The translations under genes and the position numbers were made by a program. DNA of 64,000 nt. Source: an uncultured Gammaproteobacteria bacterium. Lineage in GTDB: Bacteria; Patescibacteriota; Microgenomatia; Levybacterales; GWA1-39-11. The first letter of the stretch is position 1; each line of letters starts with the position of its first letter. The DNA is taken from NCBI GenBank assembly GCA_964427615.1, contig CAYRUR010000004.1, forward strand, positions 10,975 to 74,974, written 5' to 3'. The notes beneath the pieces are model-generated. The model made no database searches. It was given only the letters and a program-made list of their open reading frames with translations, and was not told the DNA's origin. Below are positions 6,941-54,818 of the stretch, in pieces.

Positions 6941-6942
6941 GT

Positions 6943-12351: not shown

Positions 12352-12363
12352 TTGCTCTTCCTT

Positions 12364-13002
12364 ATGATATATGATGCTATAAAAAGATTGTTAGATATTG
12401 CGTTATCAATCTTTTTGATTATCCTTTTTTCTCCTGTTTTTTTTCTTACTGCTTTAGCTATAAAAATGGATTCTAAAGGTCCTATTCTTGCTGATACTCC
12501 TTCTCGAGTGGGTAAAGACGGGAAGTTGTTTCGAATGTATAAATTCCGTTCTATGATACAAAATGCACATACAATGCTCTTAGAGGACGAAAAATTCAAG
12601 CAATATTATGAGGAGTATAAAAAAAGTGGTTATAAACTAAAAAATGATCCTAGAATTACCCGTATTGGCAGATTTATTCGCAAGTATTCACTTGATGAAT
12701 TACCTCAGTTTTTTAATGTCTTAAAAGGTGAAATGAGTATTGTGGGTCCTCGTGCTTATTATCCTGACGAATTACGAGATCAGCAAAAACAATATCCAGG
12801 TACTAGTAAGGCGGTAAAAATTGTGATGTCAGCAAAGCCGGGAATTACGGGTGTGTGGCAAGTCTCTGGAAGAAGCGATATCAATTTCGATAAACGAATT
12901 TTGCTGGATGCAGAGTATGCAAAGAGAAGATCTATTGTGTATGATCTGTATATTATTGCCAAAACGCCCTTTGCTATGCTTTCCGGAAAAGGAGCTATGT
13001 AA
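12364..13002 (+). CDS. Bacterial sugar transferase (monotopic phosphoglycosyl transferase, WbaP C-terminal/PglC-type), the initiating enzyme of glycan assembly
   Basis: Signature LDELPQFFNVLKGEMSIVGPRA, PGITGVWQVSGRS and an N-terminal reentrant hydrophobic helix. The ATG is at 12364; the tool ORF begins at a TTG at 12352. Confidence 0.75.
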   Translation: MIYDAIKRLLDIALSIFLIILFSPVFFLTALAIKMDSKGPILADTPSRVGKDGKLFRMYKFRSMIQNAHTMLLEDEKFKQYYEEYKKSGYKLKNDPRITRIGRFIRKYSLDELPQFFNVLKGEMSIVGPRAYYPDELRDQQKQYPGTSKAVKIVMSAKPGITGVWQVSGRSDINFDKRILLDAEYAKRRSIVYDLYIIAKTPFAMLSGKGAM

Positions 13003-13088
13003 TGCTTGATTTCTTTTCTGGTAATATGGTTAAATAAGAAAAATCCCCCTCCTGGAAAGAATTTTGTACCTAAAAGGAGGAAGAAATC

Positions 13089-15068
13089 ATGGAAGAACAA
13101 GGATTTGGAAAACTAAACTTTTCATCACCGAAACCTAGCGTTAACGCTCAGACTATTAAGCCATTTGCAAGTATGAGAAAAAGAAGATTATTAGCAGGAA
13201 ATAATAAAAGACTAAAAAAACTGTTGAGATCAAGGAAATTTCTTGTTGTAGCAGGAATTGTATTACTATTGGGGGTAGTGTCACTCATAAAAGCATTTTC
13301 TGTATATAACGATGCCATGCAGCTGAGGACTCAGGCAAAAGCAGCATATGCAGCTATCAAAGTACAAGATGTTGAGCTTGCTAAGAAAGAATTGGTAAAA
13401 ACCCAAGAGAATGTAGAGCAATTACAGAAAGACTTAGGTTTTTTCATGTTAGTAGGATATATTCCTTTTGTAGGAGGGTATTACAATGACGTAGTACATA
13501 TGGTAAATGCCTCCTCTTATGGTATCTCAGCAGCCACAATTGCTACTGACTCACTTATTCCTTACGCTGATGTGCTTGGTCTTAAGGGGAGCGGTACTTT
13601 TACAACAGGATCAGCACAGGACAGGATTCGATTAGCAGTCAAGACATTGGGTAAAGTTGTTCCAAGAATTGATGAGATAGAAGTACAGGTATCAAAAGCA
13701 AAAGAAGAAATTGATCAAGTAGATGTGAATCATTATCCAAATTTTTGGGTATTTAAAGATTTAAGAACCCAAATTGAAACAGTAAAAACGCTTACAGATG
13801 AGGGAGCGTTAGCGGTAAAAGAAGGAAAACCACTTATTAAAATGTTGCCGGAACTTCTAGGTGAGTCAGAAGACAAAAAGTATTTGATATTGTTCCAGAA
13901 TGATAAGGAGTTGCGTCCTACCGGAGGATTTTGGACTTATTATGCTATTTTCAGGGTAGAACAAGGGGTGATTACAGTTGACAAATCAACCAATATTTAT
14001 GATCTTGATGATAGTATTCCTTCTCACCCTGCTGCGCCAAGAATTATTGCTAATTACCTTCCAAAAGTAAATGAATGGTATATTAGGGACGCTAATATTT
14101 CACCTGACTTTGCAGAGTCAGTAAAGAACTTTAATGAGTTGTATGAGGATTCTGCTGAATATACAGAGGTAGATGGCGTTATCGCGCTTGATACTCATTT
14201 TCTGGTACATATTTTAGAAATCTTAGGAGAAGTACAGGCAGGTGGCCAGGCTTTTAATGCAGAAATAGACCCTCACTGTGATTGTCCTCAAGCAGTCTAT
14301 TTGCTAGAACTAAATACCACAAAACCAGTAGGATACGTAAGAGAGAATAGAAAGTCTATTTTAGGAGATCTTTTATTTGCCATTATGGAAAAAGCACTTT
14401 CCAGTTCTCCAGGAGATTATTGGGGAAGACTGGTACAGACTGCTATGGCTGATGCACAGCAAAAGCATATTATGTTCCATTTATATAACAAAGATGCACA
14501 GCGTGGAGTAGAAGCACTAGGGTGGGGCGGAAGAATTGATAATACTTTTGAAGGAGACTATCTGCATATAAATGATGCTAATTTTGGAGGAGCAAAATCA
14601 AATATGTTTGTAAGAGATGCAGTAAAGATGGAGTATGAGGTGGATAAAGAAGGAAAGATTACCAAAACAGTAACTATTGATTATAAAAACCCTCAACCAT
14701 ACTCCGATTGTAACCTTGAAAGTGGTGGTTTATGTTTGAATGCAACTTTGAGGAACTTCCAACGGGTTTATGTACCCAAAGGTAGTGATTTGGTAAAAGT
14801 AAAAGGATCTGAAGTGAAAGTAAAAACGAATGAGGATCTTGGCAGAACTTATTTTGAGTCATTCTTTAGGGTAAATCCTCTGGGTAAAGCACAAATTTCA
14901 TATACCTACACACTGCCATTTAAAGTTGAAAAAGGACAAGAACTGCCAGTACTGATTCAAAAACAGGGAGGAAAGGACATAATTCCGTACGAGATCTATG
15001 TAAATGACAAAAAAGTAGAAACATTTGATCTCACTACTGATAAGGAACTTCTTCTTGAGGTGCGATAA
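13089..15068 (+). CDS. DUF4012 domain protein with an N-terminal TM anchor
   Basis: Motif LRPTGGFWTYYAIFRVEQGVITVDKSTNIYDLDD, typical of the DUF4012 family that accompanies glycan loci in Patescibacteria and Actinobacteria. A good RBS, AGGAGGAAGAAATC, precedes the ATG. Confidence 0.6.
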   Translation: MEEQGFGKLNFSSPKPSVNAQTIKPFASMRKRRLLAGNNKRLKKLLRSRKFLVVAGIVLLLGVVSLIKAFSVYNDAMQLRTQAKAAYAAIKVQDVELAKKELVKTQENVEQLQKDLGFFMLVGYIPFVGGYYNDVVHMVNASSYGISAATIATDSLIPYADVLGLKGSGTFTTGSAQDRIRLAVKTLGKVVPRIDEIEVQVSKAKEEIDQVDVNHYPNFWVFKDLRTQIETVKTLTDEGALAVKEGKPLIKMLPELLGESEDKKYLILFQNDKELRPTGGFWTYYAIFRVEQGVITVDKSTNIYDLDDSIPSHPAAPRIIANYLPKVNEWYIRDANISPDFAESVKNFNELYEDSAEYTEVDGVIALDTHFLVHILEILGEVQAGGQAFNAEIDPHCDCPQAVYLLELNTTKPVGYVRENRKSILGDLLFAIMEKALSSSPGDYWGRLVQTAMADAQQKHIMFHLYNKDAQRGVEALGWGGRIDNTFEGDYLHINDANFGGAKSNMFVRDAVKMEYEVDKEGKITKTVTIDYKNPQPYSDCNLESGGLCLNATLRNFQRVYVPKGSDLVKVKGSEVKVKTNEDLGRTYFESFFRVNPLGKAQISYTYTLPFKVEKGQELPVLIQKQGGKDIIPYEIYVNDKKVETFDLTTDKELLLEVR

Positions 15069-22912: not shown

Positions 22913-24154
22913 ATGATACGCACACTTAAAAATAAAGCTCATCTTCTACTTGCCCTTACTGCAAATATCATAAACGGTTTTCCGGCACGTAAATTAACAG
23001 TCATAGGAGTAACTGGGACAGATGGTAAAACAACAACTGTTCATCTTATCTATCACATTTTGCGCAAAAATGGATATAAAGCAGCTGCTATTTCTACTGT
23101 CGGTGCGTATATTTCTGAAGAAAACCTTGATATAGGGTTTCATGTTACTACTCCTTCACCATTTCTTTTACAAAAATATATTAAAAGAGCAGTGGCCAAT
23201 AACAATACCCATTTAGTTCTTGAAATAACTTCTCATGGATTGGATCAGTATAGGGACTATGGTATTGATTATGCATTTGGTATATTAACCAATATTTCTC
23301 CAGAACATCTTGATTATCACAAAACATATGATCATTATGTAAAAACAAAGGCAAAGCTGTTAGTAAAAGCAGCAAAAGTTATAATAAATAAGGATGATAT
23401 TTCATATAAAAAAATACGGGCTTTTCTTTCTAAAAAGGATAAAAAAGATATCATAACGTATGGGTTGGGAGAAGACGCAATGATAAATCCTTATACCACA
23501 GTACTTGATTCTCATCTATCGGGAGATTTTAACAGATATAATTTTCTTGCAGCAGCTGCGGTTGCCAGAGAATTAGGGATAAGTGATAAAGGCATAGAAC
23601 AAGCTATGAAAACGTATCTTCCGCCATTAGGCCGCCAGGATGTGGTATTTGATAATGGTTTTCGAGTTATGATTGATTTTGCTCATACGCAAAACTCATT
23701 TAAAGAGTTACTCTCATTTCTGGCAAAAGAAAAAAAGAAACGATTGATTCACGTTTTTGGATGTGCAGGAAAAAGAGATACCGAAAAAAGGCCGGAAATG
23801 GGAAAGGTGTCTGCACAATTTAGTGATGTCATTATCCTAACTGCTGAAGATCCACGAGGAGAAGCAGTAGAGAGTATTAACCATGATATTGAAAAAGGAA
23901 TACAAGGTTTCACACTTGCACAGGATGAAAAAGAAATAGATGGCAAAAGAAAAGTATATTTAAAAACAAATGATCGCAAACAGGCCATTGAAATGGCTAT
24001 CAGAATCGCTGAGAAAGGAGATATGGTTATTATTACTGGAAAATCACATGAGAAATCGATGAATCTGGATGGAAAACATGAGGTTCCGTGGAATGAATTC
24101 ACAATTGTAAAAGAAGCACTCAAAAAGAGAAAACAAAATACAAAGAAAGCTTAG
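22913..24154 (+). CDS. murE: Mur ligase, MurE-like (UDP-MurNAc-L-Ala-D-Glu:diamino acid ligase), lacking the canonical N-terminal UDP-binding domain
   Basis: The P-loop VIGVTGTDGKTTT begins at residue 30. ILTNISPEHLDYHKTYDHY matches the MurE DHLDYHG motif. Only 53 nt separate it from the ftsI stop, so no upstream coding space exists. Confidence 0.6.
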   Translation: MIRTLKNKAHLLLALTANIINGFPARKLTVIGVTGTDGKTTTVHLIYHILRKNGYKAAAISTVGAYISEENLDIGFHVTTPSPFLLQKYIKRAVANNNTHLVLEITSHGLDQYRDYGIDYAFGILTNISPEHLDYHKTYDHYVKTKAKLLVKAAKVIINKDDISYKKIRAFLSKKDKKDIITYGLGEDAMINPYTTVLDSHLSGDFNRYNFLAAAAVARELGISDKGIEQAMKTYLPPLGRQDVVFDNGFRVMIDFAHTQNSFKELLSFLAKEKKKRLIHVFGCAGKRDTEKRPEMGKVSAQFSDVIILTAEDPRGEAVESINHDIEKGIQGFTLAQDEKEIDGKRKVYLKTNDRKQAIEMAIRIAEKGDMVIITGKSHEKSMNLDGKHEVPWNEFTIVKEALKKRKQNTKKA

Positions 24155-24159
24155 ACAGT

Positions 24160-25608
24160 ATGAAATATAAAAAAATATTTTTTGTTGGGATAAAAGGAGT
24201 TGGTATGACTTCTCTTGCCGTGATAGCAAAAGAAGCAGGAATATCAGTTAGTGGAAGTGATGTTGCGGAAGTATTTATTACTGATGCTATTTTGGAACAC
24301 ACTGGTATTAAGGTTTTAGAGGGATTTGATGCAAAACATATTGATAATTTTTTTCATTCAGAATTTGATGAAGGGCTAGTTATTACTACCGGAGCTCATG
24401 GGGGATTATCAAATGAAGAAGTAATAAGAGCAAAAGAGTTGGGTATTCCGGTAATGACACATGGGATGGCAGTAGGCTTTTTTATGTCTGGAGAGCTTTT
24501 TGACAGAAATCTCAAAGGGGTCTCAGTGGCTGGTTCTCATGGTAAGACTACCACTTCAGCTATGATAGCGACTGTACTTTCCTTGGTGGAAAAAGACCCA
24601 TCATACGCTATCGGAACTAGTGAGGTATTTCCTTTGGGCTTTGCAGGACATTATGGAGAAGGTGAGTATTTTGTGGCTGAAGCAGACGAATATGCTTCTG
24701 ATATTCAGTATGATAAAACGCCAAAGTTATTTTATCAAAAACCTGACGTTGCAGTGATTACTAATATTGATTTTGATCATCCTGATTTTTATCAAGATTT
24801 AGAAAGTGTATATAAAACTTTTGATCATTTTTTGAAGCAAATGGCTAAAGACGGAATGATTATTGTCAATGGAGATGATGACAGACTAACACAGATTGCA
24901 AAAAAACATGAAAATAAGAAGGTAATAACATTTGGAGTAAAAAAAGAGAACGATTATTATATTGAAAATTTTGCGGAAAAAGGGTTGGGATCTGAATTTG
25001 ATGTATATACTCAGAAAGGGTTACTTGGTAGATTTTCTCTTGCTGTGCCGGGTCTTCATAATGCAGTAAATATGTTAGCAGCAATTATTCTTTTAATAGA
25101 AGAAAAAATTGAGATAGACATGATAAAAGAAGCAGTAGCACAGTTTAGAGGTACCAAAAGAAGACTTGAGATAATAGGAGAGACAACACAAGGAGCTGTA
25201 CTTATTGATGACTATGCGCATCATCCAAAAGAGATTGAGACAACGCTTATAGCACTACGAAAGGCTTTTCCTAATAAGAAAATTGTCTCTATTTTTCAAC
25301 CACATATGGTGTCTCGCACAAAAGCACTTCTTGCTGAGTTTGTGGACTCTTTTAAACATGCAGATGCATTACTTTTTTTACCCGTTTTTACATCTGCAAG
25401 AGAAAAGGGAGATGCCGTAGCTTTACAACAAGAAGTAGAAAAAGCATTTGATGGTAAAGATGTTGCAATTACGTTTCCAGAAACCAAAGATGCTGTGATA
25501 GAATACATTAACCAAAATTGTAATAATCCCAATTTTGTTATTGTTACTATTGGTGCAGGAGACGTATATAAAATAGGATATCAATTAAAACAGTATGAAA
25601 CAGTATAG
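24160..25608 (+). CDS. murC: UDP-N-acetylmuramate--L-alanine ligase
   Basis: N-terminal FFVGIKGVGMTSLAVIAKEAGISVSGSD (the MurC Rossmann motif) and the P-loop GSHGKTTT. Confidence 0.75.
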   Translation: MKYKKIFFVGIKGVGMTSLAVIAKEAGISVSGSDVAEVFITDAILEHTGIKVLEGFDAKHIDNFFHSEFDEGLVITTGAHGGLSNEEVIRAKELGIPVMTHGMAVGFFMSGELFDRNLKGVSVAGSHGKTTTSAMIATVLSLVEKDPSYAIGTSEVFPLGFAGHYGEGEYFVAEADEYASDIQYDKTPKLFYQKPDVAVITNIDFDHPDFYQDLESVYKTFDHFLKQMAKDGMIIVNGDDDRLTQIAKKHENKKVITFGVKKENDYYIENFAEKGLGSEFDVYTQKGLLGRFSLAVPGLHNAVNMLAAIILLIEEKIEIDMIKEAVAQFRGTKRRLEIIGETTQGAVLIDDYAHHPKEIETTLIALRKAFPNKKIVSIFQPHMVSRTKALLAEFVDSFKHADALLFLPVFTSAREKGDAVALQQEVEKAFDGKDVAITFPETKDAVIEYINQNCNNPNFVIVTIGAGDVYKIGYQLKQYETV

Positions 25609-26914
25609 TATTCAAGGTGGCAAACCATTAAAAGGAGAAATTACTATTTCAGGATCAAAAAATATTGTGTCAAAAGCGCTGATTGCAGCATGTTTGACAG
25701 ATGAAGAAGTGGTCATTAAAAACGTTCCGCTTATTAATGACTTTATGTTGATGCTTGATTTGGTGAAAGAAATTGGTGGTGAAGCTTCCTTTGATGGTCA
25801 TACATTAAGAGTGCGGGTAAAAGATATTAAGACTTGCAAAATTCCTTTGGAGATAGGCGCCAAGATAAAGACTTCTTCTATGTTTCTTGCTCCTTTACTG
25901 TTGCGGTGCAATGAAGCTATGATCCCTAATCCTGGTGGCTGTCGAATTGGTTCACGTCCTATTGATAGGCACATAAAAGGGCTTGAGCAGATGGGTGCAG
26001 AAATTGGTTATTTTAGTGAAGATGGGTATTTTCATGCAAAAACAAAAGGGCTTAATGGCACCACATTTCGTTTTGATAAAAACACTCACACCGGAACAGA
26101 AACGCTTATTTTAGCAGCAGCTTTGGCAAAAGGCAGAACTGTGCTTGAGAATGCTGCAGAAGAACATGAAGTGGATGATTTGATTACCCTCTTGAACAAA
26201 ATGGGTGCACGAATCAGAAGAACAGAAAAAAGAACGATTGTTATTGATGGAGTAGAAAAACTGCATGGGGCAACGCATGAGATTCTTTCAGATAGTAATG
26301 AACTAGTAACCTTTGCTATTACTTCAGCTTTAACAGGAGGAAATATTCATATTAAAAACGCAAACTTAAGTAAAGTTGAGACATTTTTACATTTGTATGA
26401 GCAAGCAGGTGGAGCATATGAACAAGTCGATGATTATGTGCGTTTTTATATACCCAATGGTATAAAACCGACAGACATTACCACAGCTCCGGAGCCTGGT
26501 TTTAAGACAGACTGGCAAAGTCTTTGGGCAGTTTTTATGACTCAGGCAGAGGGTGTTTCAACCATCCATGAGTCTATTTATGAGAACAGGTATGGATATG
26601 TTGAAGAACTGAAGAAAATGGGTGCTAATATTGAACTCTTTCAGCCAGAGGTAAAAGACCCCGACTCTTTTTATAATTTTAACTATGATCCTACTCATGA
26701 ATATTTGCAAGGGATAAAGATTACTGGTAAAACACCACTGCATAATGCAGTCATGCATATCTCTGATTTGCGTGCCGGAGCTACATTAGTGATTGCTGCT
26801 TTGATTGCAAAAGGGGAAAGCGTCATTTTTGGAGTAGAACAAATAGATAGAGGATACGAGGACTTTGATAATCGTCTTAGATCATTAGGAGCTGATATTA
26901 CGGTTACAGAATAA
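25595..26914 (+). CDS. murA: UDP-N-acetylglucosamine 1-carboxyvinyltransferase
   Basis: MKQYSIQGGKPLKGEITISGSKN...; EPT-fold length of 439 aa. Confidence 0.85.
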   Translation: MKQYSIQGGKPLKGEITISGSKNIVSKALIAACLTDEEVVIKNVPLINDFMLMLDLVKEIGGEASFDGHTLRVRVKDIKTCKIPLEIGAKIKTSSMFLAPLLLRCNEAMIPNPGGCRIGSRPIDRHIKGLEQMGAEIGYFSEDGYFHAKTKGLNGTTFRFDKNTHTGTETLILAAALAKGRTVLENAAEEHEVDDLITLLNKMGARIRRTEKRTIVIDGVEKLHGATHEILSDSNELVTFAITSALTGGNIHIKNANLSKVETFLHLYEQAGGAYEQVDDYVRFYIPNGIKPTDITTAPEPGFKTDWQSLWAVFMTQAEGVSTIHESIYENRYGYVEELKKMGANIELFQPEVKDPDSFYNFNYDPTHEYLQGIKITGKTPLHNAVMHISDLRAGATLVIAALIAKGESVIFGVEQIDRGYEDFDNRLRSLGADITVTE

Positions 26915-26915
26915 T

Positions 26916-27659
26916 ATGGAAGACAAAATTACAAATAACATTTGGGCAATAATTTTGGCAGCAGGAAAAGGGACTCGCATGAAATCATCAGACAAAAATA
27001 AAGTAGTGCTGGAAGTAGGAGGAGTTCCAATGCTTAAAAGAACAATTGATAATTTAAGAGAGGCATCTATTCAAAACATTATGATTGTGGTGGGTTTTGC
27101 AAAAGACTCTGTGTTGCAGGTACTGGATAAAGATATAAAAATTGCATATCAAAAAAAGAGATTAGGTACTGGACATGCTGTTAAAGTAGCACTTGATGCG
27201 ATTCCCAAAAGTGATACGGTATTAGTATTGCAGGGAGATGATTCATATATGTACACTCCTGAGATCTTAAAAGAGCTTTACACAGTGCATACCCAGCATA
27301 AGGCTGCACTGACCTTTTTGACTCTTATGGTCGACAACCCAAGTGGTCTTGGCAGAATTGTGAGAGGGAAAGATGGAAAAGTGGTAGGTATTGTAGAAGA
27401 AAAAGATGCCACAGCAGAACAAAGAAAAATTAAAGAGATAAATCCTGCCTGTTATATGTTCTCATATGATTTTTTGAAAAAAAATATTAAAAAAATAAAA
27501 AAGAGTCCAGTAACCAAGGAATACTATTTGACAAGACTGATTCATTTAGCAGTAGAGCAGAAAGAAATAATCGAGACCTTTACAGCAGATAATATTGCGT
27601 GGAGAGGTGTAAATACACCCGAAGAATTACAAGAAGCACAAAAACTTATCCAAAAATAG
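26916..27659 (+). CDS. Sugar-1-phosphate nucleotidyltransferase resembling the N-terminal (uridylyltransferase) domain of GlmU
   Basis: AIILAAGKGTRMKS, LGTGHAV and LQGDDSY align with the GlmU motifs LAAGKGTRM / LGTGHA / GD.P. Confidence 0.55.
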   Translation: MEDKITNNIWAIILAAGKGTRMKSSDKNKVVLEVGGVPMLKRTIDNLREASIQNIMIVVGFAKDSVLQVLDKDIKIAYQKKRLGTGHAVKVALDAIPKSDTVLVLQGDDSYMYTPEILKELYTVHTQHKAALTFLTLMVDNPSGLGRIVRGKDGKVVGIVEEKDATAEQRKIKEINPACYMFSYDFLKKNIKKIKKSPVTKEYYLTRLIHLAVEQKEIIETFTADNIAWRGVNTPEELQEAQKLIQK

Positions 27660-27663
27660 GTAC

Positions 27664-28308
27664 ATGGAACAAGACGCGTTGCATAACAAGAATTATTTTG
27701 ATTTATCACTTCTCTCTTTCCGTGACCTTTTTGACACTACTTACCTTTGGGAAGTAATTCCTCACATAGAAACATATATCAATTCATTATTTTTATCAGG
27801 AAAACTACAACCAAACTATAAGAGAGCAAAAAACGTATACATAGGAAAAGATGTGGAAATTCATGATACTGCTGAGATAAGAGGACCAGCGATTATTGGT
27901 GATGGTTCTGTTGTAGAACATGGAGCTTTATTAAGAAATGCCTGTTTGATAGGAAAAAATGTAAAAGTAGGGCATGCTGTTGAGATAAAAAATAGCGTTA
28001 TTTTAGATAATGCTGCGGTTGCACATTTAGGATATGTGGGAGACAGTATTATTGGTGATCATGTAAATATTTCCGGTGGAGCAATTATTGCTAATTACAG
28101 GCTCGATAAAAAAAATATAAAAATAAAAACACTTAATGGGGTTATAGAAACAGGATTGAAGAAATTTGGAGCGATTATTGGTGATGACAGTGTAATAGGA
28201 GTTAACGCAGTGATAAATCCAGGAACAATGATAGGGAAAAACTCTCTCGTGTATCCTCTGACATCAGTATCAGGATTGCACGCCCCTCAATCTATAATCA
28301 AAGGTTAG
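27664..28308 (+). CDS. Hexapeptide-repeat acyltransferase resembling the C-terminal (acetyltransferase) domain of GlmU
   Basis: Left-handed beta-helix repeats (VKVGHAVEIKNSVILDNAAVAHLGYVGDSIIGDHVNISGGAIIAN) in a gene that immediately follows the nucleotidyltransferase gene. Confidence 0.5.
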   Translation: MEQDALHNKNYFDLSLLSFRDLFDTTYLWEVIPHIETYINSLFLSGKLQPNYKRAKNVYIGKDVEIHDTAEIRGPAIIGDGSVVEHGALLRNACLIGKNVKVGHAVEIKNSVILDNAAVAHLGYVGDSIIGDHVNISGGAIIANYRLDKKNIKIKTLNGVIETGLKKFGAIIGDDSVIGVNAVINPGTMIGKNSLVYPLTSVSGLHAPQSIIKG

Positions 28309-28333
28309 CCAGATTTATAGATCTACAATTGGA

Positions 28334-29974
28334 ATGGATTACGAATTAGGGTGGGATGGCATGCAGATAAATATAGAAACGATTTATTTTTTTACATCAG
28401 TATTCTTTTTTACTATTGTTCTTAGAAAAACATTCTATTGGATAGCAGTATGGCAGGAAAATAAATTTGACTTTAAAAGAGTTCTCAATAGCATTACTAG
28501 TAAAGAAAAACTAAAGCAAATATTTTTTACTCGTGATGCTTTAATAAAATATTTTCTTTTCTTCTTATTCTTCTTATCAGTATTTTATTTCTGGATTACT
28601 CATTTTTATATGTATATTATTGCTCTTTTCTATGGGTATATGATAGTCCAGCTTATCTCTCAAGCATATCATCAGGAGATTGTTATTCCAAAGATTACTA
28701 TAAGTAGTACTGCTATTTTTGTAGGTTCTGTTTTGTTGTTAATTATTTGTTACGTTGTTCCTTTAATCGATACATTTTTTTGGCTAATAGTACTTGATAC
28801 CGCAGTGATATTTTTTGTGGGAGTTTCTGTTCTTTTAGTATCCATTCCAAAGGATTTTTATAAAGATATGCGTATTAACAAAGCGATAAAATCATTAGGT
28901 AAAAATAAAAGGATACAAGTTATACAAGTAATTGGAAATGAAAAAGATATAACAGCAGATAGACTGGAACAGGTACTTTCTCATAAATATAATGTCGTAG
29001 TAAATGAGAGTGGAAGTGATACTCCTTTTGAAGTTGCTGAAATAATTCTTAAAAAAATAACAGACAAAACACAAATACTTATTATAAAAACAGGGTTGAT
29101 GGATATAGACGCTTTTTTACATATTACATTGATGGTAAAACCAAGCATTGCTATTTTTACCTCTATGTCTGAATTAAATATTTCATTGAGTAAAAATAAA
29201 AAAACAGATTATGAAAGGTATCGTGAAATTTTAGAGGTGATTCCTCACAAGTGTACAGTACTCGTACATGAAGTATTTGAAGAACGAACTGCTTTATTCA
29301 AGAATGTTAAAAGAAAAAAAATACAGTATCAGATAGCAAAGAGAAAACAAGAAACAGATGATGAAAAGATACAGGGATACAGTGTGAAACTAGGAAAACA
29401 GGCAACAAAGATGAGAGTTAAAATAAAAAAAAGGAAACTAGGAGAGCTGAAAATCCCGTTAATAGGATTATCAAATATATATAGCATTCTGGCAGCATTC
29501 TATGTTGCTAAAAAGATAGGAATGAAAAGTGATGAAATAAAAGAAGCGATACAAAAATTACAACCAGTTAAAGATTACATGGGTATCACACACCATAAGA
29601 GTGGAGCTGTATTACTCAATAACACAGGAAATGATATTGGCCAATTACCTGATGATTTATCATTGTATCTTCCGTTGTTTAAAGGAAAAAGGATAGTGGT
29701 GCTTCCGCCTGTAAAAGGGGTGTCAAAAGAGAAAAGAAGAAAAATAATAGAGGAAAGAGCAGCTTTTTCTGATCACATGATACTGATAAGCAACAAGCTG
29801 CCTAAAAAAATAAAAGAGAAATTATCGTTTTCTTCACATACCTGTCTTATACAGTATATGTATCCTAAAAATGCTTGTCATTATTTAGATACTACTTTGG
29901 ATAAAAAGGATGTGGTTGTTTTTGAAGGAGAAGGGTCTAAAAAAATACTTCGTAGTTTGCTTGAAGAGGAATAA
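28334..29974 (+). CDS. Membrane-anchored Mur-ligase-family protein in the murF position, with a degenerate P-loop (possible pseudoenzyme or divergent MurF)
   Basis: About six N-terminal TM helices. The expected GxxGKT is replaced by VIGNEKDIT. NVVVNESGSD resembles the MurF NNEIG motif, and KIPLIGLSNIYSILAAFYVAKKIGMKSDEIKEAIQKLQPVKDYMGI resembles the Mur-ligase LPLLGRHNVYNALAA...L..F....GR motif. Confidence 0.45.
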   Translation: MDYELGWDGMQINIETIYFFTSVFFFTIVLRKTFYWIAVWQENKFDFKRVLNSITSKEKLKQIFFTRDALIKYFLFFLFFLSVFYFWITHFYMYIIALFYGYMIVQLISQAYHQEIVIPKITISSTAIFVGSVLLLIICYVVPLIDTFFWLIVLDTAVIFFVGVSVLLVSIPKDFYKDMRINKAIKSLGKNKRIQVIQVIGNEKDITADRLEQVLSHKYNVVVNESGSDTPFEVAEIILKKITDKTQILIIKTGLMDIDAFLHITLMVKPSIAIFTSMSELNISLSKNKKTDYERYREILEVIPHKCTVLVHEVFEERTALFKNVKRKKIQYQIAKRKQETDDEKIQGYSVKLGKQATKMRVKIKKRKLGELKIPLIGLSNIYSILAAFYVAKKIGMKSDEIKEAIQKLQPVKDYMGITHHKSGAVLLNNTGNDIGQLPDDLSLYLPLFKGKRIVVLPPVKGVSKEKRRKIIEERAAFSDHMILISNKLPKKIKEKLSFSSHTCLIQYMYPKNACHYLDTTLDKKDVVVFEGEGSKKILRSLLEEE

Positions 29975-30111
29975 TAGAGTATCTTTTTATATCGATCAAT
30001 ATTTGGTATCAAGGCATAATTTTTTTTTATATTTTTACAATTTATACTATTGATTCATCTTTGTCTTTTCATTGTAAAATTGTTCGTGAAAAGCTATAAT
30101 GAGACCTGTCT

Positions 30112-31122
30112 ATGGAAAAGATTTTTGGATTTGCAATTCTTTCATTTTTTATAACGGCAATTTTGATAATTCCGTTTATTGATTTCTTATATAAGATTAA
30201 GCTACAAAGGAAAAAGCAAGAAACAAAAGATATCTTCAATCAAAGAACTCCCTTATTCGATAAACTAAACAGTTCAAAAGTTGGAACTCCTTTTGGTGGA
30301 GGGTTACTCATTATTTTTGTAGTAACTATTCTGTCTTTGTGGGCATATGGGTTGCTGGCAATAGAGGTGAAGTTTTGGGAGTTATTTGTGCTTCTTTTTT
30401 CTTTCATTGGTTTTGGTGTTTTGGGTTTTTATGATGACTTAAAAAAAATCCTAAACGTAGAAGGTCCGAATTCTTTTTTTGGCTTGAGATTTACTCATAA
30501 GTTTTTGATTCAATGGATTTTGGCAATTATTATTGGAGCTGTTTTCTATTTTCAGCTGGGTTACTCTTTTGTTTTTATTCATTGGATAGGGACCATTCCC
30601 ATAGGTCTTCTTTTCATTCCCTTTGCAGCCTTTGTTATTGTCTCATTTGCGAATGCTTTTAATATTACTGATGGATTAGATGGGTTGGCTTCCGGTTCAT
30701 TTTTAATTTCTCTGATGGCATTTTTAGTTATCTCTCATACTTTACTTGATACTTTTCTGGCAATTTTTATTGCCTTTTTATTAGGAGCAGTTATTGCCTT
30801 TTTGTATTTTAATATTTATCCAGCACGTCTCTGGCTTGGAGATGTAGGGTCTTTGTCTTTAGGAGCAGTCTTTGCTGTCATTGGATTGTTAACAGGGAAG
30901 ACAAGTCCGTTAGTGTTAATTGGTGGCATATTTGTTATCGAAGTTGCTTCTTCATTGGTGCAAATCTTGGGGAAGAAATTCTTACATCGCAAACTGCTTC
31001 CTATTGCACCGCTACATCTATATTTCTTAAAAAAAGGATGGGAAGAACCTAAAATAGTCATGAGAGCATGGCTGATTGGTATTATTTTTGCTCTCTTTGG
31101 GTTATTTATTGCATTCTCATGA
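30112..31122 (+). CDS. mraY: Phospho-N-acetylmuramoyl-pentapeptide transferase
   Basis: ANAFNITDGLDGLASG; 10 TM helices. Confidence 0.85.
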   Translation: MEKIFGFAILSFFITAILIIPFIDFLYKIKLQRKKQETKDIFNQRTPLFDKLNSSKVGTPFGGGLLIIFVVTILSLWAYGLLAIEVKFWELFVLLFSFIGFGVLGFYDDLKKILNVEGPNSFFGLRFTHKFLIQWILAIIIGAVFYFQLGYSFVFIHWIGTIPIGLLFIPFAAFVIVSFANAFNITDGLDGLASGSFLISLMAFLVISHTLLDTFLAIFIAFLLGAVIAFLYFNIYPARLWLGDVGSLSLGAVFAVIGLLTGKTSPLVLIGGIFVIEVASSLVQILGKKFLHRKLLPIAPLHLYFLKKGWEEPKIVMRAWLIGIIFALFGLFIAFS

Positions 31123-32195
31123 TCCGCAAAGCAGGAATCTCATTATTTTTCATTACGCTCTTTTTGGCACTTCTGGGGATTTTTATTCTGTATGAAACAT
31201 CCTCATATACTGCATTGTTAAACATTGGTGATAAATACTATTTTGTAAAAAATCAGCTTATGTGGTTAACAGGTGGAATTCTGATTTCTGCTATTCTTTG
31301 GCGATTCAACTACAAAAAGCTATATCAGCTTGCGCTTCCTCTTCTTATTATCAACATAGTCTTACTTTTTCTTGTTTTTTTTCCGGGCATTGGTTTGAGT
31401 TTGAAAGGATCGCATAGATGGATAGACTTAGGTTTTTTTGTTTTTCAGCCCTCTGAGATGCTTAAAATTACTTTTACGCTTTACCTGGCAGCATGGTTAT
31501 CCTCCAGTGAAAAAGGTCGATTTTTAGCATTTTGTCTTTTATTTCTTTTTGCTACAGCCTTAGTTGCTCTGGAGCCAGATATGGGTACGGCACTGGTTAT
31601 TGCAGTCACCGCTGTCTCAGTCTATTTTTTGTCCAATGCTCCTATAAAAGAATTGGGACTTATGTTTTTGATTTTAATTTTAGGTTCAGTTTTGCTCATT
31701 AAGATGGAGCCTTATCGTATAGCTCGTCTTACTGCTTTTCAAGAAGTGAGTCCTACTAACATCCAGGATATGTCATATCATACAAAACAAGTTTTAGTTG
31801 CATTAGGGTCAGGAGGGTTAACAGGAGTGGGTTTGGGTAACTCTATTCAAAAATATGGGTATGTACCTGAAAGTACTACTGATTCTATTTTTGCTATTTA
31901 TGCTGAAGAAGTGGGATTTTTAGGTTCTGTATTTTTAATTCTTGTGTTGTTTGCTCAATTAATGATGGGCTTTATTATTGCAGCCCATGCACCTGATAAA
32001 TTTGGAAAATTACTAGCAGCTGGTATTGTAATCTTTTTGGGAGCTCAGATGTTCTTAAATATTGGATCTCAAGTGGTGGTGATGCCGCTTACGGGAGTTC
32101 CATTACCTTTCGTTTCTTATGGAGGTTCTTCTATGATTATTAATTTTGCTGCTATTGGTATATTATTAAATATTTCCAAAAGTAAACATACATAA
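31119..32195 (+). CDS. ftsW: SEDS-family peptidoglycan glycosyltransferase FtsW
   Basis: Polytopic SEDS protein with C-terminal PLTGVPLPFVSYGGSSMI, in the position between mraY and murG. Its ATG at 31119 overlaps the mraY TGA (ATGA). Confidence 0.75.
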   Translation: MIRKAGISLFFITLFLALLGIFILYETSSYTALLNIGDKYYFVKNQLMWLTGGILISAILWRFNYKKLYQLALPLLIINIVLLFLVFFPGIGLSLKGSHRWIDLGFFVFQPSEMLKITFTLYLAAWLSSSEKGRFLAFCLLFLFATALVALEPDMGTALVIAVTAVSVYFLSNAPIKELGLMFLILILGSVLLIKMEPYRIARLTAFQEVSPTNIQDMSYHTKQVLVALGSGGLTGVGLGNSIQKYGYVPESTTDSIFAIYAEEVGFLGSVFLILVLFAQLMMGFIIAAHAPDKFGKLLAAGIVIFLGAQMFLNIGSQVVVMPLTGVPLPFVSYGGSSMIINFAAIGILLNISKSKHT

Positions 32196-32196
32196 C

Positions 32197-33333
32197 ATGA
32201 AAGTAGCAATCACAGGAGGACATTTTTCTCCAGCATTATCAGTTATAGAAGTATTACGCAAAAGGCAAGATACGGTAGTTGTGTTGGGAAGAAAGTATGT
32301 TTTTGAAGGAGAAGATGCTGTTTCACTAGAATACAAAATATGTCAGAAAAATAATATTCCTTTTTATGAGATAAAGGCTGCTCGATTACAGAGAAAAATT
32401 ACCCAGCACACACTTCCTGCATTATTACGTTTTCCACGAGGTATTTTTGATGCTATAAAAGTATTACGAAAAGAAAAGCCTGATGTTATTTTGTCTTTCG
32501 GAGGGTACATTGCCTTACCTGTAGCATTAGCGGCTTTTATGCAACAGATACCAGTAGTTATTCATGAACAAACACAAGAGGCAGGGCTTGCGAATAAAAT
32601 AATTGGAAAATTTGCAGATAAAATACTGCTTTCTTTCCCCTCTTCAAAAAAACATTTTCCAAAAGGAAAAATAGTAGTTACTGGTAATCCCTTACGTAAA
32701 GAAGTTTTTACAGTAGAAAAAAAACAAGATCTTGTACCTGGTAAAAAGCTTATTTATGTTACGGGCGGAAGTGCAGGATCTCACTTTATAAACTCACTTA
32801 TTAAAAAAACAGCACCAACTTTACTTGAAAAGTATGCGATTATTCATCAAACGGGTGATTCACAACTATTTAAAGATTATGATCTTCTTTATCAAATGAA
32901 AGAAAGTCTGCCTTCAGATCTTGCAAAGAGATATATCTTACAAAAATTTATTCTTCCTGATGAAATTGGGTGGATTCTAAAACATGCAGACCTTGTTATA
33001 GCACGCTCAGGAGCCAACACAGTGCTTGAGTTAATAGCGTTGGAGAAAAGGTCTTTATTGATACCGCTTCCTCATGGACAAAGTGGAGAACAACTCAAAA
33101 ATGCTCAACTGATGAAAAAAATAGGATTGGCTGAAGTTTTGGAACAAGAGCAAGCCACAGGAAAACAGTTTCTTGAGACTGTGGAAAAAATGATGCATAA
33201 TCAAAAAGGATACAAAATAGAAGAGCAGGTGAAAAAAAACTACTTTTTCCCTCATGCAGCAGAAGCTATAGTAGAGCAATTAGAAAAAACCAATGAGACA
33301 AAGAAGAAAAAAACAACCGATTATCATTCCTAA
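32197..33333 (+). CDS. murG: UDP-N-acetylglucosamine--N-acetylmuramyl-(pentapeptide) pyrophosphoryl-undecaprenol N-acetylglucosamine transferase
   Basis: MKVAITGGHFSPALSV...GGYIALPVALAA...VIHEQT, the GT28 motifs. Confidence 0.8.
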   Translation: MKVAITGGHFSPALSVIEVLRKRQDTVVVLGRKYVFEGEDAVSLEYKICQKNNIPFYEIKAARLQRKITQHTLPALLRFPRGIFDAIKVLRKEKPDVILSFGGYIALPVALAAFMQQIPVVIHEQTQEAGLANKIIGKFADKILLSFPSSKKHFPKGKIVVTGNPLRKEVFTVEKKQDLVPGKKLIYVTGGSAGSHFINSLIKKTAPTLLEKYAIIHQTGDSQLFKDYDLLYQMKESLPSDLAKRYILQKFILPDEIGWILKHADLVIARSGANTVLELIALEKRSLLIPLPHGQSGEQLKNAQLMKKIGLAEVLEQEQATGKQFLETVEKMMHNQKGYKIEEQVKKNYFFPHAAEAIVEQLEKTNETKKKKTTDYHS

Positions 33334-42660: not shown

Positions 42661-45522
42661 ATGTTTAAAACAGTTTCACCCAAGGTAGATTTTCCTGAGA
42701 TGGAGCGCAACCTTTTGGAAAAATGGTATAACACCGGAATAGTTGAAAAGTACCTGCACTTAAATGATGTTGCAGATAAACAGTTTTCTTTTCTTGATGG
42801 ACCTATTACCGCTAATAACCCTATGGGTGTGCATCATGCCTGGGGAAGAACGTATAAAGATTTTTGGCAGCGTTTCTGGAACATGCGCGGATACAGACAG
42901 CGATTTCAGAATGGTTTTGATGAACAAGGGCTATGGGTAGAGGTAGAAGTAGAAAAAGAATTAGGACTGAAAAGCAAAAAAGATATTGAGAATTTAGTAC
43001 CAGGAGATAAATTCAAAAGTCTTGAGAAATTTATTAACCTCTGCAAAGAGCGAGTCGTAAAGTTTTCCCAAATCCAAACAGAACAATCTAAAAGACTAGG
43101 TTATTTCATGGATTGGGATAACTCCTATCACACTTCCTCTGATAAGAACAACTATACCATTTGGCATTTTTTGCAAGTGGTGAATGAGAAAGGATGGTTA
43201 TATAAGGGAAGAGATAGTGTGCCTTGGTGTCCTCGCTGCGGAACAGCTATCTCTCAACATGAGATCTTAACAGAGGAATACAAAGAGTTAACGCATACTT
43301 CTGTTTTTTTCAAACTTCCTCTTGTAGATGAAGAAAAGAAGTACCTCTTAGTATGGACAACGACTCCGTGGACTATTCCTGCCAATGTGGCAGTAGCTGT
43401 AGATCCTAACTTAGATTATGCTGAAGTTGCAGTAGAGGGTGCAACCTACATTGTAGCGGATGCAGTGTCTCAAAACATATTACCAGAAGGGAAGAAAACA
43501 AAAGTATTCAAAGGATCTGAGTTGGTAGGAAAAAAATATACCGCTCCTTTTGATAATCTGCCTGCGGTACAACAATCTCTAGGCTCATATGAGCACAGAA
43601 TTATTGCTACAGATCCTCTCATCTTGCCTATTGTTACAGAAGAAGGAACAGGACTTGTGCATATTGCTCCTGGTGCAGGTACGCAAGACTTTGCCCTTGG
43701 AAAAAAAGAAGAATTACCAGTTATTGCACCAATTGATGAAGCAGGTATATATGTGGAAGGATTTGGTGCTTTTACAGGTCTGCATACCAAAAAAGTAACT
43801 GAGGGAGTTATTGAATATCTTCAAGAACATGACTTTTTACTCAAAGCTGAAAAGTATACTCACCGTTATCCTACCTGCTGGAGATGTAAGACAGAGCTGG
43901 TATGGAGAGTAGTGGATGAGTGGTATATTGCCATGGATAAAAAAGACGAGAGTGGCAAAACATACCGTGAGCAAATGATTGAAGTTGCAAAAGAAATTAC
44001 CTGGATGCCTTCTTGGGGATTGGATCGAGAGCTTGATTGGCTCAAAAACATGCATGATTGGCTGATTTCAAAAAAACGATACTGGGGACTTGCTCTTCCT
44101 ATTTGGGAATGTAATGACTGCCATCATTTTATGGTGATTGGTGGGAAAGAAGAGTTAAAGGAAAAAGCAGTTGAAGGATGGGAATCTTTTGAAGGAAATA
44201 GTCCACATAGACCATGGGTAGATCAGATAAAAATAAAGTGTGATGAGTGTGGAGGGATAGCAACACGCATTCCAGATGTAGGGAATCCTTGGCTTGATGC
44301 TGGCATTGTGCCATTTTCTACCATGCCTTCTGAATGGTTTCCAGCAGATTTTATTACTGAGAGTTTTCCTGGTCAGTTTAAAAATTGGTTTTATGCATTG
44401 ATTGCTATGAGTACTGCACTTAAAAGTACCAATCCTTTCAAACGGGTACTAGGATTTGGATCAGTCAGAGATGAAAAAGGAGAAGAAATGCATAAGAGTA
44501 AGGGGAATGCAATTGAATTTAATGAAGCAGCAGACAAGATAGGCGTTGATGTAATGAGATGGCTTTATCTTCGCACCAATCCAGAGCATAACGTAAGTTT
44601 TGGATACCATGTAACAGATGAGATTCGCAGATTATTTTATTTGCGGTTATGGAATGTCTATTCATTTTTTGTAATGTATGCCAATGTAGATGGATGGGAA
44701 GCACAAAAAGACAAACCATTTACTCCATCTAAAGTACTGGATAAATGGATTCTGTCTCGTCTGAATCACAGTGTAGAAGTAGTAACCGACTTGGTAGCTT
44801 CCTACAATGCACAAGAAGCAACGAAAGAGGTAGAGCATTTTATCATTGATGAGTTATCCAATTGGTATGTGAGAAGAATAAGAGATAGAGTAGGTCCAAG
44901 TGCAATACAAGGAAAGGATAAAGATGATGCATATACTACGCTCTGGATAGTGCTTACCACTTATGCAAGACTTTTGGCTCCATTCATGCCATTTATCGCT
45001 GATGAAATATATACTAATTTAACAGGAGAAGAATCAGTGCATATAGTACAGTGGCCAGAAGTAAATAATGAGCTTATTGATACAAAACTGGAGCAAGAAA
45101 TGGCATATGCAATAGAGCTTGCTTCTGCAGCACACGAATTAAGAAGAGAATCCGGTGTAAAGGTAAAAATCCCATTAAAAACACTTTCTTATAATGGTCC
45201 TGCGCAGTTGAGTGAAGAAGTCATAAAAATCGTACAAGAAGAGACAAATGTATACAACTTGGTGTATGAGAAAAAGCAAGATGTCTTTAGTGTGACTGGT
45301 TCAACAGATGTAGAAAATCAGGATTTAGTGGCAGGACAGGTAAGAGACATTATCAGAAAAATCCAGCAAGAAAGAAAAATACTGGGGACAACTTTTAGTG
45401 AGAAAGTGGACGTGTATTTGCCAGAGTGGCCAGAAGGAAAAGAAGAGGATATTAAAAAGGGAGCTTTAGTTGATAGTATGATGAAATCAGAAGAATTTAA
45501 AGTTGTACGTAAAAATGCTTAA
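42661..45522 (+). CDS. ileS: Isoleucine--tRNA ligase
   Basis: HIGH-region GVHHAWGRT, the editing-domain signature WTTTPWTIPANVAVAV, KMSKS-like MHKSKGN and Zn-ribbon Cys pairs; 953 aa. Confidence 0.9.
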   Translation: MFKTVSPKVDFPEMERNLLEKWYNTGIVEKYLHLNDVADKQFSFLDGPITANNPMGVHHAWGRTYKDFWQRFWNMRGYRQRFQNGFDEQGLWVEVEVEKELGLKSKKDIENLVPGDKFKSLEKFINLCKERVVKFSQIQTEQSKRLGYFMDWDNSYHTSSDKNNYTIWHFLQVVNEKGWLYKGRDSVPWCPRCGTAISQHEILTEEYKELTHTSVFFKLPLVDEEKKYLLVWTTTPWTIPANVAVAVDPNLDYAEVAVEGATYIVADAVSQNILPEGKKTKVFKGSELVGKKYTAPFDNLPAVQQSLGSYEHRIIATDPLILPIVTEEGTGLVHIAPGAGTQDFALGKKEELPVIAPIDEAGIYVEGFGAFTGLHTKKVTEGVIEYLQEHDFLLKAEKYTHRYPTCWRCKTELVWRVVDEWYIAMDKKDESGKTYREQMIEVAKEITWMPSWGLDRELDWLKNMHDWLISKKRYWGLALPIWECNDCHHFMVIGGKEELKEKAVEGWESFEGNSPHRPWVDQIKIKCDECGGIATRIPDVGNPWLDAGIVPFSTMPSEWFPADFITESFPGQFKNWFYALIAMSTALKSTNPFKRVLGFGSVRDEKGEEMHKSKGNAIEFNEAADKIGVDVMRWLYLRTNPEHNVSFGYHVTDEIRRLFYLRLWNVYSFFVMYANVDGWEAQKDKPFTPSKVLDKWILSRLNHSVEVVTDLVASYNAQEATKEVEHFIIDELSNWYVRRIRDRVGPSAIQGKDKDDAYTTLWIVLTTYARLLAPFMPFIADEIYTNLTGEESVHIVQWPEVNNELIDTKLEQEMAYAIELASAAHELRRESGVKVKIPLKTLSYNGPAQLSEEVIKIVQEETNVYNLVYEKKQDVFSVTGSTDVENQDLVAGQVRDIIRKIQQERKILGTTFSEKVDVYLPEWPEGKEEDIKKGALVDSMMKSEEFKVVRKNA

Positions 45523-46600
45523 ATTCTTGCTCTCCCGCATAGATTTTACTTTACTTACTCCTGCACTACTGCTTGTTGGTCTTGCATTGGCAACGCTTTA
45601 TTCAATTGATATTGCCTTATTCCAAAACTTTCTGCTTTTTTCAGGAGTATCGCTTGTTGCATTTCTTGTCTTTACCACTATAGATTTTCATATTTTTGAT
45701 CACTATTACAAATACCTTTATATAGGCATGATTTTGTTGCTTGCTATTGTTTTTGTGATTGGTATTGAAGCAAGAGGTGCAGTAAGATGGATTGAGATTG
45801 GGAGTTTTAGACTACAGCTTTCAGAAGTTATCAAACCATTTTTTATTATTTTTATTGCTTCTCTGTTGTCTAGGACAGAGAGTAGAAGTATCTTAAAATT
45901 ATTGTTTATCTTAGTAGTTGTCTTTCCTATTTTCTTTCTTACGTTAAAGCAACCAGATCTAGGAAATGCGATAATTTTTCTTCTTGCATCTTCAGGCATG
46001 ATTTTTGTCTATGGATTTCCTTTACTGTACTTTGTGGCGTTGGGAATTATTTCAATTATTCCACTTCCTTTTCTTTATAATTTTTTGCATGATTATCAAA
46101 AACAGCGTATTGTTTCATTTTTAAATTATACCCATGACCCGTCTGGGACTTCATACAATATTATTCAGGCACTCATTTCAATTGGAAGTGGTGGTTTTTT
46201 AGGCAAAGGATTTGGTGAGTCTACGCAGTCTGTTCTTCGTTTTTTGCCGGAAAGACATACTGACTTTATTTTTTCTACCATCACAGAAAGTTTGGGATTT
46301 GTAGGAGGGATGGTAATCATTGGTATTTATACATTTTTAATGTATAGAATCTATGTTATTGCCAAAAATACAGAAAGCGATTATCTAAGACTTATTGCTG
46401 TTGGATTTTTCTTCCTTTTTTTGATTCATACTTTTTTTAATATTGGTATGAATGTAGGTATTGTGCCAATTGTGGGTATTACACTACCTTTTTTATCATA
46501 CGGAGGGAGTTCTCTTTTAACTAATTTTATTATTTTAGGAATGGCTTCATCTATCAGTAAAGATATTAAGGAGAAAAAAACGTTATATGAGATTAGGTAA
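45515..46600 (+). CDS. SEDS-family protein, RodA-like (second copy in the window)
   Basis: Polytopic protein with C-terminal PIVGITLPFLSYGGSSLL. The first ATG is at 45515 (the tool ORF starts at a TTG at 45503) and overlaps the ileS end. Confidence 0.7.
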   Translation: MLKFLLSRIDFTLLTPALLLVGLALATLYSIDIALFQNFLLFSGVSLVAFLVFTTIDFHIFDHYYKYLYIGMILLLAIVFVIGIEARGAVRWIEIGSFRLQLSEVIKPFFIIFIASLLSRTESRSILKLLFILVVVFPIFFLTLKQPDLGNAIIFLLASSGMIFVYGFPLLYFVALGIISIIPLPFLYNFLHDYQKQRIVSFLNYTHDPSGTSYNIIQALISIGSGGFLGKGFGESTQSVLRFLPERHTDFIFSTITESLGFVGGMVIIGIYTFLMYRIYVIAKNTESDYLRLIAVGFFFLFLIHTFFNIGMNVGIVPIVGITLPFLSYGGSSLLTNFIILGMASSISKDIKEKKTLYEIR

Positions 46601-51350: not shown

Positions 51351-51484
51351 ATAGATTCTTCTTTTTATAGCTTTGACAATTATATAACAAAATTATGGCA
51401 TTAGTTTTTATTTAGGTAGAAATAGAATATAATATTTGGGTATCCTTTTTAAAAGAAAAGGATAAATAAATCTAAAGCAATAAA

Positions 51485-54010: not shown

Positions 54011-54017
54011 TAGAGAT

Positions 54018-54779: not shown

Positions 54780-54818
54780 TAATTCTTCTTAATATATGTC
54801 TTTTCCACATTATTTTTT

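Follow-up and report, generated by a model that had tools for sequence, protein, structure and literature searches.

A probably inactive, membrane-anchored descendant of MurF encoded beside mraY in Patescibacteria

UDP-N-acetylmuramoyl-tripeptide–D-alanyl-D-alanine ligase (MurF) is generally considered to be soluble, essential, and nearly universal, and it counts as an antibiotic target. The Mur-ligase fold also occurs in other settings: the MurE-like protein PAP11 belongs to the plastid-encoded RNA polymerase (8r6s_Q, 9epc_Q), where its role is non-enzymatic, and MurT, a component of the MurT/GatD lipid II isoglutaminyl synthase (6gs2, 7q8e, 9sqj), does without the canonical UDP-binding N-domain and acts at the membrane on a lipid-linked precursor. 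Natural Mur chimeras such as MurD-FtsW and MraY-MurG provide the precedent for attaching a cytoplasmic precursor enzyme to a membrane partner from its own pathway; a survey of them lists nothing like a transmembrane (TM)-anchored MurF (Shirakawa et al. 2023, PMC10214165). The gene considered here occupies positions 28334..29974, stop codon included, on the forward strand of a 64-kb window (the whole stretch of contig CAYRUR010000004.1 that was analyzed, 64,000 nucleotides). It lies in the murF slot before mraY, and its uninterrupted frame encodes a MurF-like protein of 546 residues in which five TM helices stand where the N-domain of MurF is expected. The gene is likely to specify a protein that descends from a membrane-anchored MurF, has lost its catalytic activity, and has been kept for a structural or partner-binding role.

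Each of the described systems differs from this protein in important respects. PAP11, which is retrieved by its structure and likewise employs a Mur-ligase fold as a structural component, is eukaryotic, soluble, derived from MurE, devoid of a membrane domain, and part of an unrelated complex. MurT matches the MurF-like protein weakly by sequence and clearly by fold; however, it is an active enzyme whose P-loop is intact, it works together with GatD, and it is not integral to the membrane. In the MurD-FtsW and MraY-MurG chimeras the fused partner is a recognizable enzyme, whereas here a distinct membrane fold of unassigned function is combined with an apparently dead ligase part. Non-catalytic reuse of the Mur-ligase fold, as in PAP11, and membrane tethering by fusion, as in MurD-FtsW, are already known. 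Both a widespread family of MurF proteins anchored by five TM helices in bacteria of the Candidate Phyla Radiation (CPR) and its dead, in part truncated derivative, which is shared by a whole clade and still possesses the membrane module, appear to be undescribed: no account of such a protein was found in the searchable literature on membrane-anchored MurF, Mur-ligase pseudoenzymes, and CPR murF.

That the protein descends from MurF, as had been proposed from its place in the gene order, is borne out by its best family and structure matches as well as by that order. Its best match in NCBIfam is murF (TIGR01143), with 56.2 bits against a curated cutoff of 288.6, and this match starts at model position 86, just past the P-loop of the model. 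Pfam Mur_ligase_M is reached at a borderline 24.2 bits (cutoff 24.0) over residues 210–392, and the fold supports a degenerate central, ATP-binding Mur-ligase domain (aa 191–410; 28904..29563; this and all further segments of the gene on the forward strand); Mur_ligase_C is not detected in the protein, and the C-terminal domain (aa 411–546; 29564..29971) is recognized by its fold. The full-length AlphaFold (AF2) model, which, like the other structure models, rests on a family alignment in which intact homologues predominate, reaches a predicted local distance difference test (pLDDT) score of 91.5 and a predicted TM-score (pTM) of 0.88. When it is submitted to Foldseek, MurF structures come first (4cvm, 4qf5, 3zl8, and 1gg4; E 1e-21 to 1e-19), with 380–400 aligned columns and target TM-scores of 0.61–0.69, and the central and C-terminal parts of the Mur-ligase fold are present; MurC and MurE follow, then PAP11, and then MurT. 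Despite this shared ground with MurF, the N-domain has given way to membrane helices, and the P-loop, Mg ligands, carbamyl-Lys, DDxYNANP, and ELG motifs have been lost.

The loss of catalytic residues is well supported by the family alignment and extends to nearly all of them. The P-loop (aa 199–207; 28928..28954) reads VIGNE-KDIT where the consensus is ITGSYGKTST. The original prediction had called this loop degenerate, and rightly so, but held its Lys to have been replaced by Asp; K204 in fact pairs with the P-loop Lys of Streptococcus pneumoniae MurF (2am1) in phmmer and again in the family alignment, and it is the Mg-binding Thr/Ser that has become Asp. With GNE-KD the loop fails the Walker-A pattern GxxGK(T/S), and since a relative (P0022) reads GNEGKD, the second Gly was evidently lost by a one-residue deletion. 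In the segment LIIKTGLMD (aa 249–257; 29078..29104; consensus FIVEMGAYK) the Mg-binding Glu is Lys252. In FTSMSELNISLSKN (aa 275–288; 29156..29197; consensus TGINEQHLSLFG) Asn and His are lost, the latter to N282, so that NxQH has become SELN, and the carbamyl-Lys motif AKYEL just downstream reads YERYREIL (RYREI). Further on, LIGLSNIYSILAAF (aa 376–389; 29459..29500; consensus LLGKHNIENLLPA) keeps Gly378 but neither the His nor the second Asn (now S384), GxHNxxN having become GLSNIYS; DDTYNANP has turned into NNTGNDIG (29612–29641), and IELG is deleted or replaced (VKGV). Landmarks downstream of the P-loop had originally been thought to be retained. This holds only for the backbone pattern: the T, N, and G that are conserved in the family motif are gone from NVVVNESGSD, and IPLIGLSNIYSILAAF lacks the His and Asn of GxHNxxN. 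Essentially all residues for ATP and Mg binding and for acyl-phosphate chemistry are gone, and a catalytically dead, membrane-tethered protein, one of the two possibilities first put forward, is the best reading of the gene; the scaffold role in the divisome or elongasome that went with it is conjectural.

Two artifacts that might mimic such a protein, an intact P-loop that had been missed and a frameshift behind the N-terminal region, were looked for and neither was found. GxxGK[ST] occurs in no reading frame of 28200–30100, which removes both the hidden-P-loop and the frameshift objection and leaves no cryptic P-loop, be it further upstream or in a different frame. Mis-assembly or frameshifting of the N-terminal region is likewise ruled out by a continuous frame and by the homology of the TM domain throughout the family.

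The UDP-binding cytoplasmic N-domain of MurF is not present; residues 1–190 (28334..28903) instead form a helical membrane domain comprising five TM helices, a cytoplasmic loop, and a long linker helix. Hydrophobic helices had been anticipated here, albeit six of them, whereas hydropathy and two AlphaFold models agree on five: TM1 at residues ~12–34 (28367..28435), a TM2–TM3 hairpin at 67–84 and 86–108 (28532..28657), and a TM4–TM5 hairpin at 123–141 and 147–170 (28700..28843). The model of residues 1–192 has a pLDDT of 94 and a pTM of 0.85, and the positive-inside rule places the N-terminus outside and the ligase part inside. Residues 31–66 constitute a Lys/Arg-rich cytoplasmic loop with short helices at 47–64, and residues 171–190 a long basic linker helix into the ligase part. 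Conservation within the clade of degenerate relatives described below highlights the motif P143-L-I-D146-x-F-F-W150 in the TM4–TM5 hairpin and the membrane-interface motif IPKDFYKD (aa 171–178; 28844..28867). At 28451..28480, the sequence WQENKFDFKR is the remnant of a juxtamembrane family motif, WQxKEYRxDR, of which it keeps only W, Q, and the last R, as other degenerate members do. The membrane domain matches no Pfam family and no fold in the PDB.

The architecture is not unique to this gene. An exhaustive HMMER search covering 1.84 billion representative proteins returned 1490 matches at E ≤ 1e-3 and 449 at E ≤ 1e-10, with E-values down to 2.5e-66; the best 150 matches are nearly all 520–560 residues long and aligned over residues ~15–545, membrane domain included. 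End-to-end alignment with more than 120 independent full-length representatives argues that the feature is no chance pattern, and since the nearest relative is only 30% identical, the lineage must be poorly sampled. A word-indexed protein search matched the full protein only to itself, the ligase part alone to one real relative, and the TM alignment to two proteins only; profile searches of genome contigs gave no confirmed locus with one alignment (A5) and four loci with another (A6). The consensus of the family alignment, which holds 126 full-length representatives, retains ITGSYGKTSTKE, GNxNTEIG, FIVEMGAY, TGINEQHLSLFG, AKYELI, LLGKHNIENLLPA, IDDTYNANP, and IELG (also abbreviated here as GSYGKTSTKE, EMGA, NxQH, GxHNxxN, and ELG) and features a new, strongly conserved juxtamembrane motif, LWQxKEYRxDR.

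Most family members keep all Mur-ligase motifs. Intact TM-anchored proteins such as P0002, P0008, P0009, and P0047 share length, layout of five TM helices plus ligase, end-to-end homology, and synteny with the protein described here; they differ from it in possessing every catalytic motif together with WQxKEYRxDR and in scoring 223–263 bits against TIGR01143. These scores belong to a gradient that descends from a short, soluble CPR MurF (P0004, 292 bits) through the intact TM forms and semi-degenerate proteins (95–100 bits) to the MurF-like protein (56 bits) and others with 38 bits or no match. The intact forms fall just below the cutoff because the N-domain is missing, and their scores and motifs suggest that the ancestral state was a membrane-anchored, otherwise ordinary-looking MurF. 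To judge by these motifs, the architecture defines a large family of which the majority looks catalytically competent. About one in ten otherwise intact members, including P0008 and P0009, the two closest to the MurF-like protein, read GSxGKGSTKE in the family alignment (A1), with Gly in place of the Thr/Ser right after the P-loop Lys. Another intact member (L013, 2059–3435) contains an in-frame stop between the TM domain (a 175-residue open reading frame, ORF) and the ligase part, where the frame goes on with LVIGITGSYGKTSMKE; the interruption may reflect a recoded stop codon, a gene that is naturally split, or an error of assembly.

Within the family, degeneracy was scored as the match over the 50 best-conserved ligase columns, a score of 0.70 or lower being called degenerate. 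Scores are distributed bimodally, with 29 of the 126 representatives (~23%) at or below 0.70 and most others at 0.8 or higher. The MurF-like protein scores 0.46 (46% of the columns) and fits the degenerate group both in its motif losses and in the residues that the group holds constant. Degenerate members cluster in a neighbor-joining tree, with semi-degenerate forms near the base, so the dead state appears to be a trait of a whole clade, with further decay in some relatives. The two halves of the protein have fared very differently. Mean pairwise identity among intact members is 25% in the TM domain, 39% in the central domain, and 31% in the C-terminal domain, versus 28%, 20%, and 20%, respectively, among degenerate ones. 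Across the 29 degenerate proteins, only P143, W150, and P172 never vary; W36, E/D174, and D178 are 90–97% conserved (E/D174 and D178 90%), and all of these residues lie in TM1, the TM4–TM5 hairpin, or the membrane interface. The membrane domain is thus apparently the conserved part of the protein, while the ligase domains drift. The motif WQxKEYRxDR, 81–99% conserved in intact and 7–38% in degenerate members, decays in parallel with the catalytic residues, which suggests that KEYRxDR is part of a substrate site replacing domain 1 in the active enzymes.

The same shift is visible when whole loci are compared. Relative to the closest related locus (L002), neighboring genes encode proteins that are 48–78% identical (61–78% for MraY, FtsZ, FtsA, and MurA) as opposed to 27% for the MurF-like protein; between two Levybacteria-type loci the values are 79% for MraY, 75% for FtsW, and 28% for the MurF-like protein, whereas a pair of loci with intact copies gives 58% for MurA and 49% for the TM-anchored MurF. 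The GC content at codon positions 1 and 2 is 0.33 in the MurF-like gene versus 0.41–0.42 in murE and murC at equal GC3, indicating a drift of amino-acid composition. Full-length frames are nevertheless kept across this deep divergence in a gene of ~30% GC, which argues against a simple pseudogene.

Every family member with a readable context, whether intact, semi-degenerate, or degenerate, occupies the same slot upstream of mraY, in the order murE-(pgeF)-murC-(murB)-murA-glmU-(GNAT/LbH)-(glmS)-X-mraY-ftsW-murG-ftsQ-ftsA-ftsZ, where X is the TM-anchored gene. This shared slot makes the dead copies orthologues of the intact genes rather than extra paralogues. Among named genomes, dead copies occur in Candidatus Levybacteria/Levyibacteriota and in an unclassified Patescibacteria group bacterium. 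Some have decayed further into a truncated class of ~390–405 residues that ends after the central domain and retains the TM domain; as these proteins are without the amino-acid-binding C-terminal domain, they cannot be MurF ligases. An example from a 751-kb contig of Candidatus Levybacteria (L010, 9992–11185) encodes 397 residues comprising the TM domain and a degenerate central domain; its stop codon is genuine, and mraY starts ~60 nt later. Two further loci deserve mention. One (L009, CAYRJZ010000002.1) is titled 'uncultured Gammaproteobacteria', yet its dcw (division and cell wall) proteins are 64–80% identical to those of Candidatus Levybacteria loci and it carries a CPR-type degenerate TM-anchored MurF; the taxonomic label looks wrong. 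The other (L006, 5416–6666) is a CPR dcw cluster with a soluble, short MurF and a MurL-type epimerase (PF26299/PF26298) between murB and murE, which hints at a route to D-Glu in which L-Glu is added and then epimerized.

A history consistent with these data would start from a family common in Patescibacteria/CPR of the Microgenomates-Levybacteria type, in which the UDP-binding N-domain was exchanged for a five-helix membrane domain with the motif WQxKEYRxDR; such an anchor would put the enzyme that adds D-Ala-D-Ala at the membrane, its gene directly upstream of mraY. In the lineage of the present gene, the residues that bind ATP and Mg have disappeared together with the substrate motifs specific to MurF, and the ligase domains evolve almost freely, with selection preserving the full-length frame and the membrane domain. 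The protein most likely no longer ligates and may persist as a membrane-embedded structural or partner-binding part of the lipid-I/lipid-II machinery, a role that is the most plausible one because the position beside mraY is fixed and that, on the best-supported reading, resides mainly in the TM module. An alanine racemase gene adjoins the closest homologue, which suggests that D-Ala is still used and that a functional MurF is probably encoded elsewhere in the genome, as murD and ddl must be. The same racemase gene, which implies a need for D-Ala, also counts for the rival view that the protein itself is still the working MurF of the organism, extremely divergent and with a remodeled active site in which, e.g., K204 is assisted by D205 as a metal ligand. 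The murF slot is indeed occupied with no other murF in the window or within 10 kb of degenerate homologues, the P-loop Lys is retained, and the full three-layer ligase fold is predicted. Such an enzyme is nonetheless very unlikely, since all other catalytic positions have been lost together (the P-loop Gly and Thr, the Mg-binding Glu, the His, and the carbamyl-Lys), as have the adenine-binding His and Asn, DDxYNANP, and ELG; no substitute residues are conserved in the ligase part of the 29 degenerate members at 20% identity, and some members of the clade are without the whole amino-acid-binding domain. If the enzyme is dead, the gene might be a functionless relic, in effect a slowly decaying pseudogene that was displaced by another MurF and happens to have a frame that is still uninterrupted. 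Very fast evolution relative to its neighbors, an amino-acid composition drifted toward AT-rich codons, and the existence of truncated versions would all fit. This, too, is highly doubtful: open frames of 520–550 residues persist in at least 29 representatives that share ~20–28% identity, where a neutral sequence of 30% GC would gain stops fast, invariant and near-invariant TM residues remain, TM identity is as high among degenerate as among intact members, and both the TM and the central domain survive even in truncated forms.

Other possibilities assign the protein a more specific function. The membrane domain could have become active in its own right, e.g., by binding undecaprenyl-linked precursors or by regulating MraY, with the dead ligase serving as a sensor of UDP-MurNAc-peptide or nucleotide without turnover. 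Conservation that is strongest in the TM4–TM5 hairpin and in acidic residues of the interface (P143, D146, W150, D155, P172, E/D174, D178), the fixed position beside mraY, and the precedents of Mur-ligase folds that are non-catalytic (PAP11) or act on lipid-linked substrates (MurT) would agree with such neofunctionalization; but the degenerate ligase domains show no conserved polar pocket and the TM fold has no characterized structural relative that would hint at an activity, which makes it unlikely. Distinctly unlikely, in our estimation, is a more radical scheme in which the Levybacteria-like lineage has no conventional MurF at all and either makes its pentapeptide by another route or enzyme or builds a stem without D-Ala-D-Ala; the five-TM module would then be an unrecognized membrane component that works with MraY on lipid-linked precursors, and in the intact family, where it would replace the UDP-binding domain, it would link the final cytoplasmic reaction to the formation of lipid I.

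An inactive protein kept for a structural or partner-binding role thus remains the preferred explanation, and several observations weigh against it. The replacement MurF that it assumes is unobserved, as no second murF lies within 10 kb of any degenerate copy or in the 64-kb window; murD and ddl are missing from these clusters too, so what a cluster lacks is a poor guide to what the genome lacks. Residual nucleotide binding is formally possible, given that K204 and the overall Rossmann-like scaffold have been kept. High AF2 confidence is no proof that the drifted domains fold identically because the underlying alignment is rich in intact homologues, and the clustering of fast-evolving sequences by neighbor joining may in part reflect long-branch attraction. 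Taken together, the comparisons show the MurF ancestry, the membrane anchor, the loss of catalytic residues, the constraint relaxed in the ligase part and kept in the TM part, and the conserved synteny; the non-catalytic role is inferred, and so is another gene that would supply MurF activity.

In the window, the MurF-like gene is flanked by glmU-like genes on its 5′ side and by mraY on its 3′ side and is part of a dcw cluster with the order mraZ-rsmH-ftsL?-PBP-murE-murC-murA-glmU(N)-LbH-X-mraY-ftsW-murG-ftsQ-ftsA-ftsZ, in which PBP denotes a penicillin-binding protein, the ftsL-like ORF is small, and ftsQ is assigned to an ftsQ-like ORF. The true start of the gene may be the ATG at 28361 (M10) rather than 28334, since homologues begin around query residue 14 and GGGTGGGA directly precedes that ATG. 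Also on the forward strand and directly upstream, 25595..28308 holds murA, a GlmU-type nucleotidyltransferase ORF, and a separate LbH acetyltransferase-type ORF; directly downstream and again on that strand, 30112..33333 holds mraY, ftsW, and murG, a neighborhood kept in every family member examined. The intact Mur ligases murE (22913–24154) and murC (24160–25608), both on the forward strand, are, with the MurF-like ORF, the only Mur-ligase homologues in the window; only these two have Mur-type P-loops, and they are its only catalytically intact Mur ligases. Neither murD, murB, ddl, nor alr was found in the window, and the contig sequence read beyond it contains no mur genes, with atp genes, dnaE, and gatB there instead. 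The murE product is short (413 residues) and matches TIGR01085 from model position 69 on, and is therefore without the usual N-terminal UDP-binding domain; murE products of relatives are likewise 377–434 residues long and consist of M and C domains only. The GlmU-type nucleotidyltransferase (26916–27659) and the LbH (hexapeptide) ORF (27664–28308) are two frames 4 nt apart, whereas in L002 and L003 one protein of 578–583 residues holds both parts; either the gene is naturally split or a frameshift separates the two.

The 137-bp AT-rich gap between the MurF-like gene and mraY contains a promoter-like sequence, TTGTAA-17-TATAAT (10/12), at 30072–30100; the number of promoter-like sites in the region is not above chance. 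An Rfam scan returned one tRNA and nothing else. A second gene of the FtsW/RodA/SpoVE family (45503–46600, 365 aa) lies outside the dcw cluster and adjoins an isoleucyl/valyl-type tRNA synthetase gene. Two large glycan-assembly regions (1576–15068 and 49407–57730) encode several GT2 and GT4 glycosyltransferases, two Wzy_C/O-antigen-ligase-like proteins (one of 1022 aa), two PMT_2 proteins, a Bac_transf initiating transferase, a DUF4012 protein, and a Polysacc_synt flippase-like protein.

In a large group of ultra-small CPR bacteria, MurF appears to be produced as an integral membrane protein from a gene beside mraY, a finding relevant to the long-standing proposal of a membrane-based organization of the cytoplasmic Mur enzymes. 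Automated 'murF present' calls that derive from synteny or weak hidden Markov model matches may be wrong in these genomes, and such calls would affect metabolic reconstructions of CPR peptidoglycan synthesis. The series from intact through dead to truncated forms amounts to a natural separation of functions: that a whole sub-lineage keeps the membrane module while the enzyme dies suggests that this module has a function of its own.

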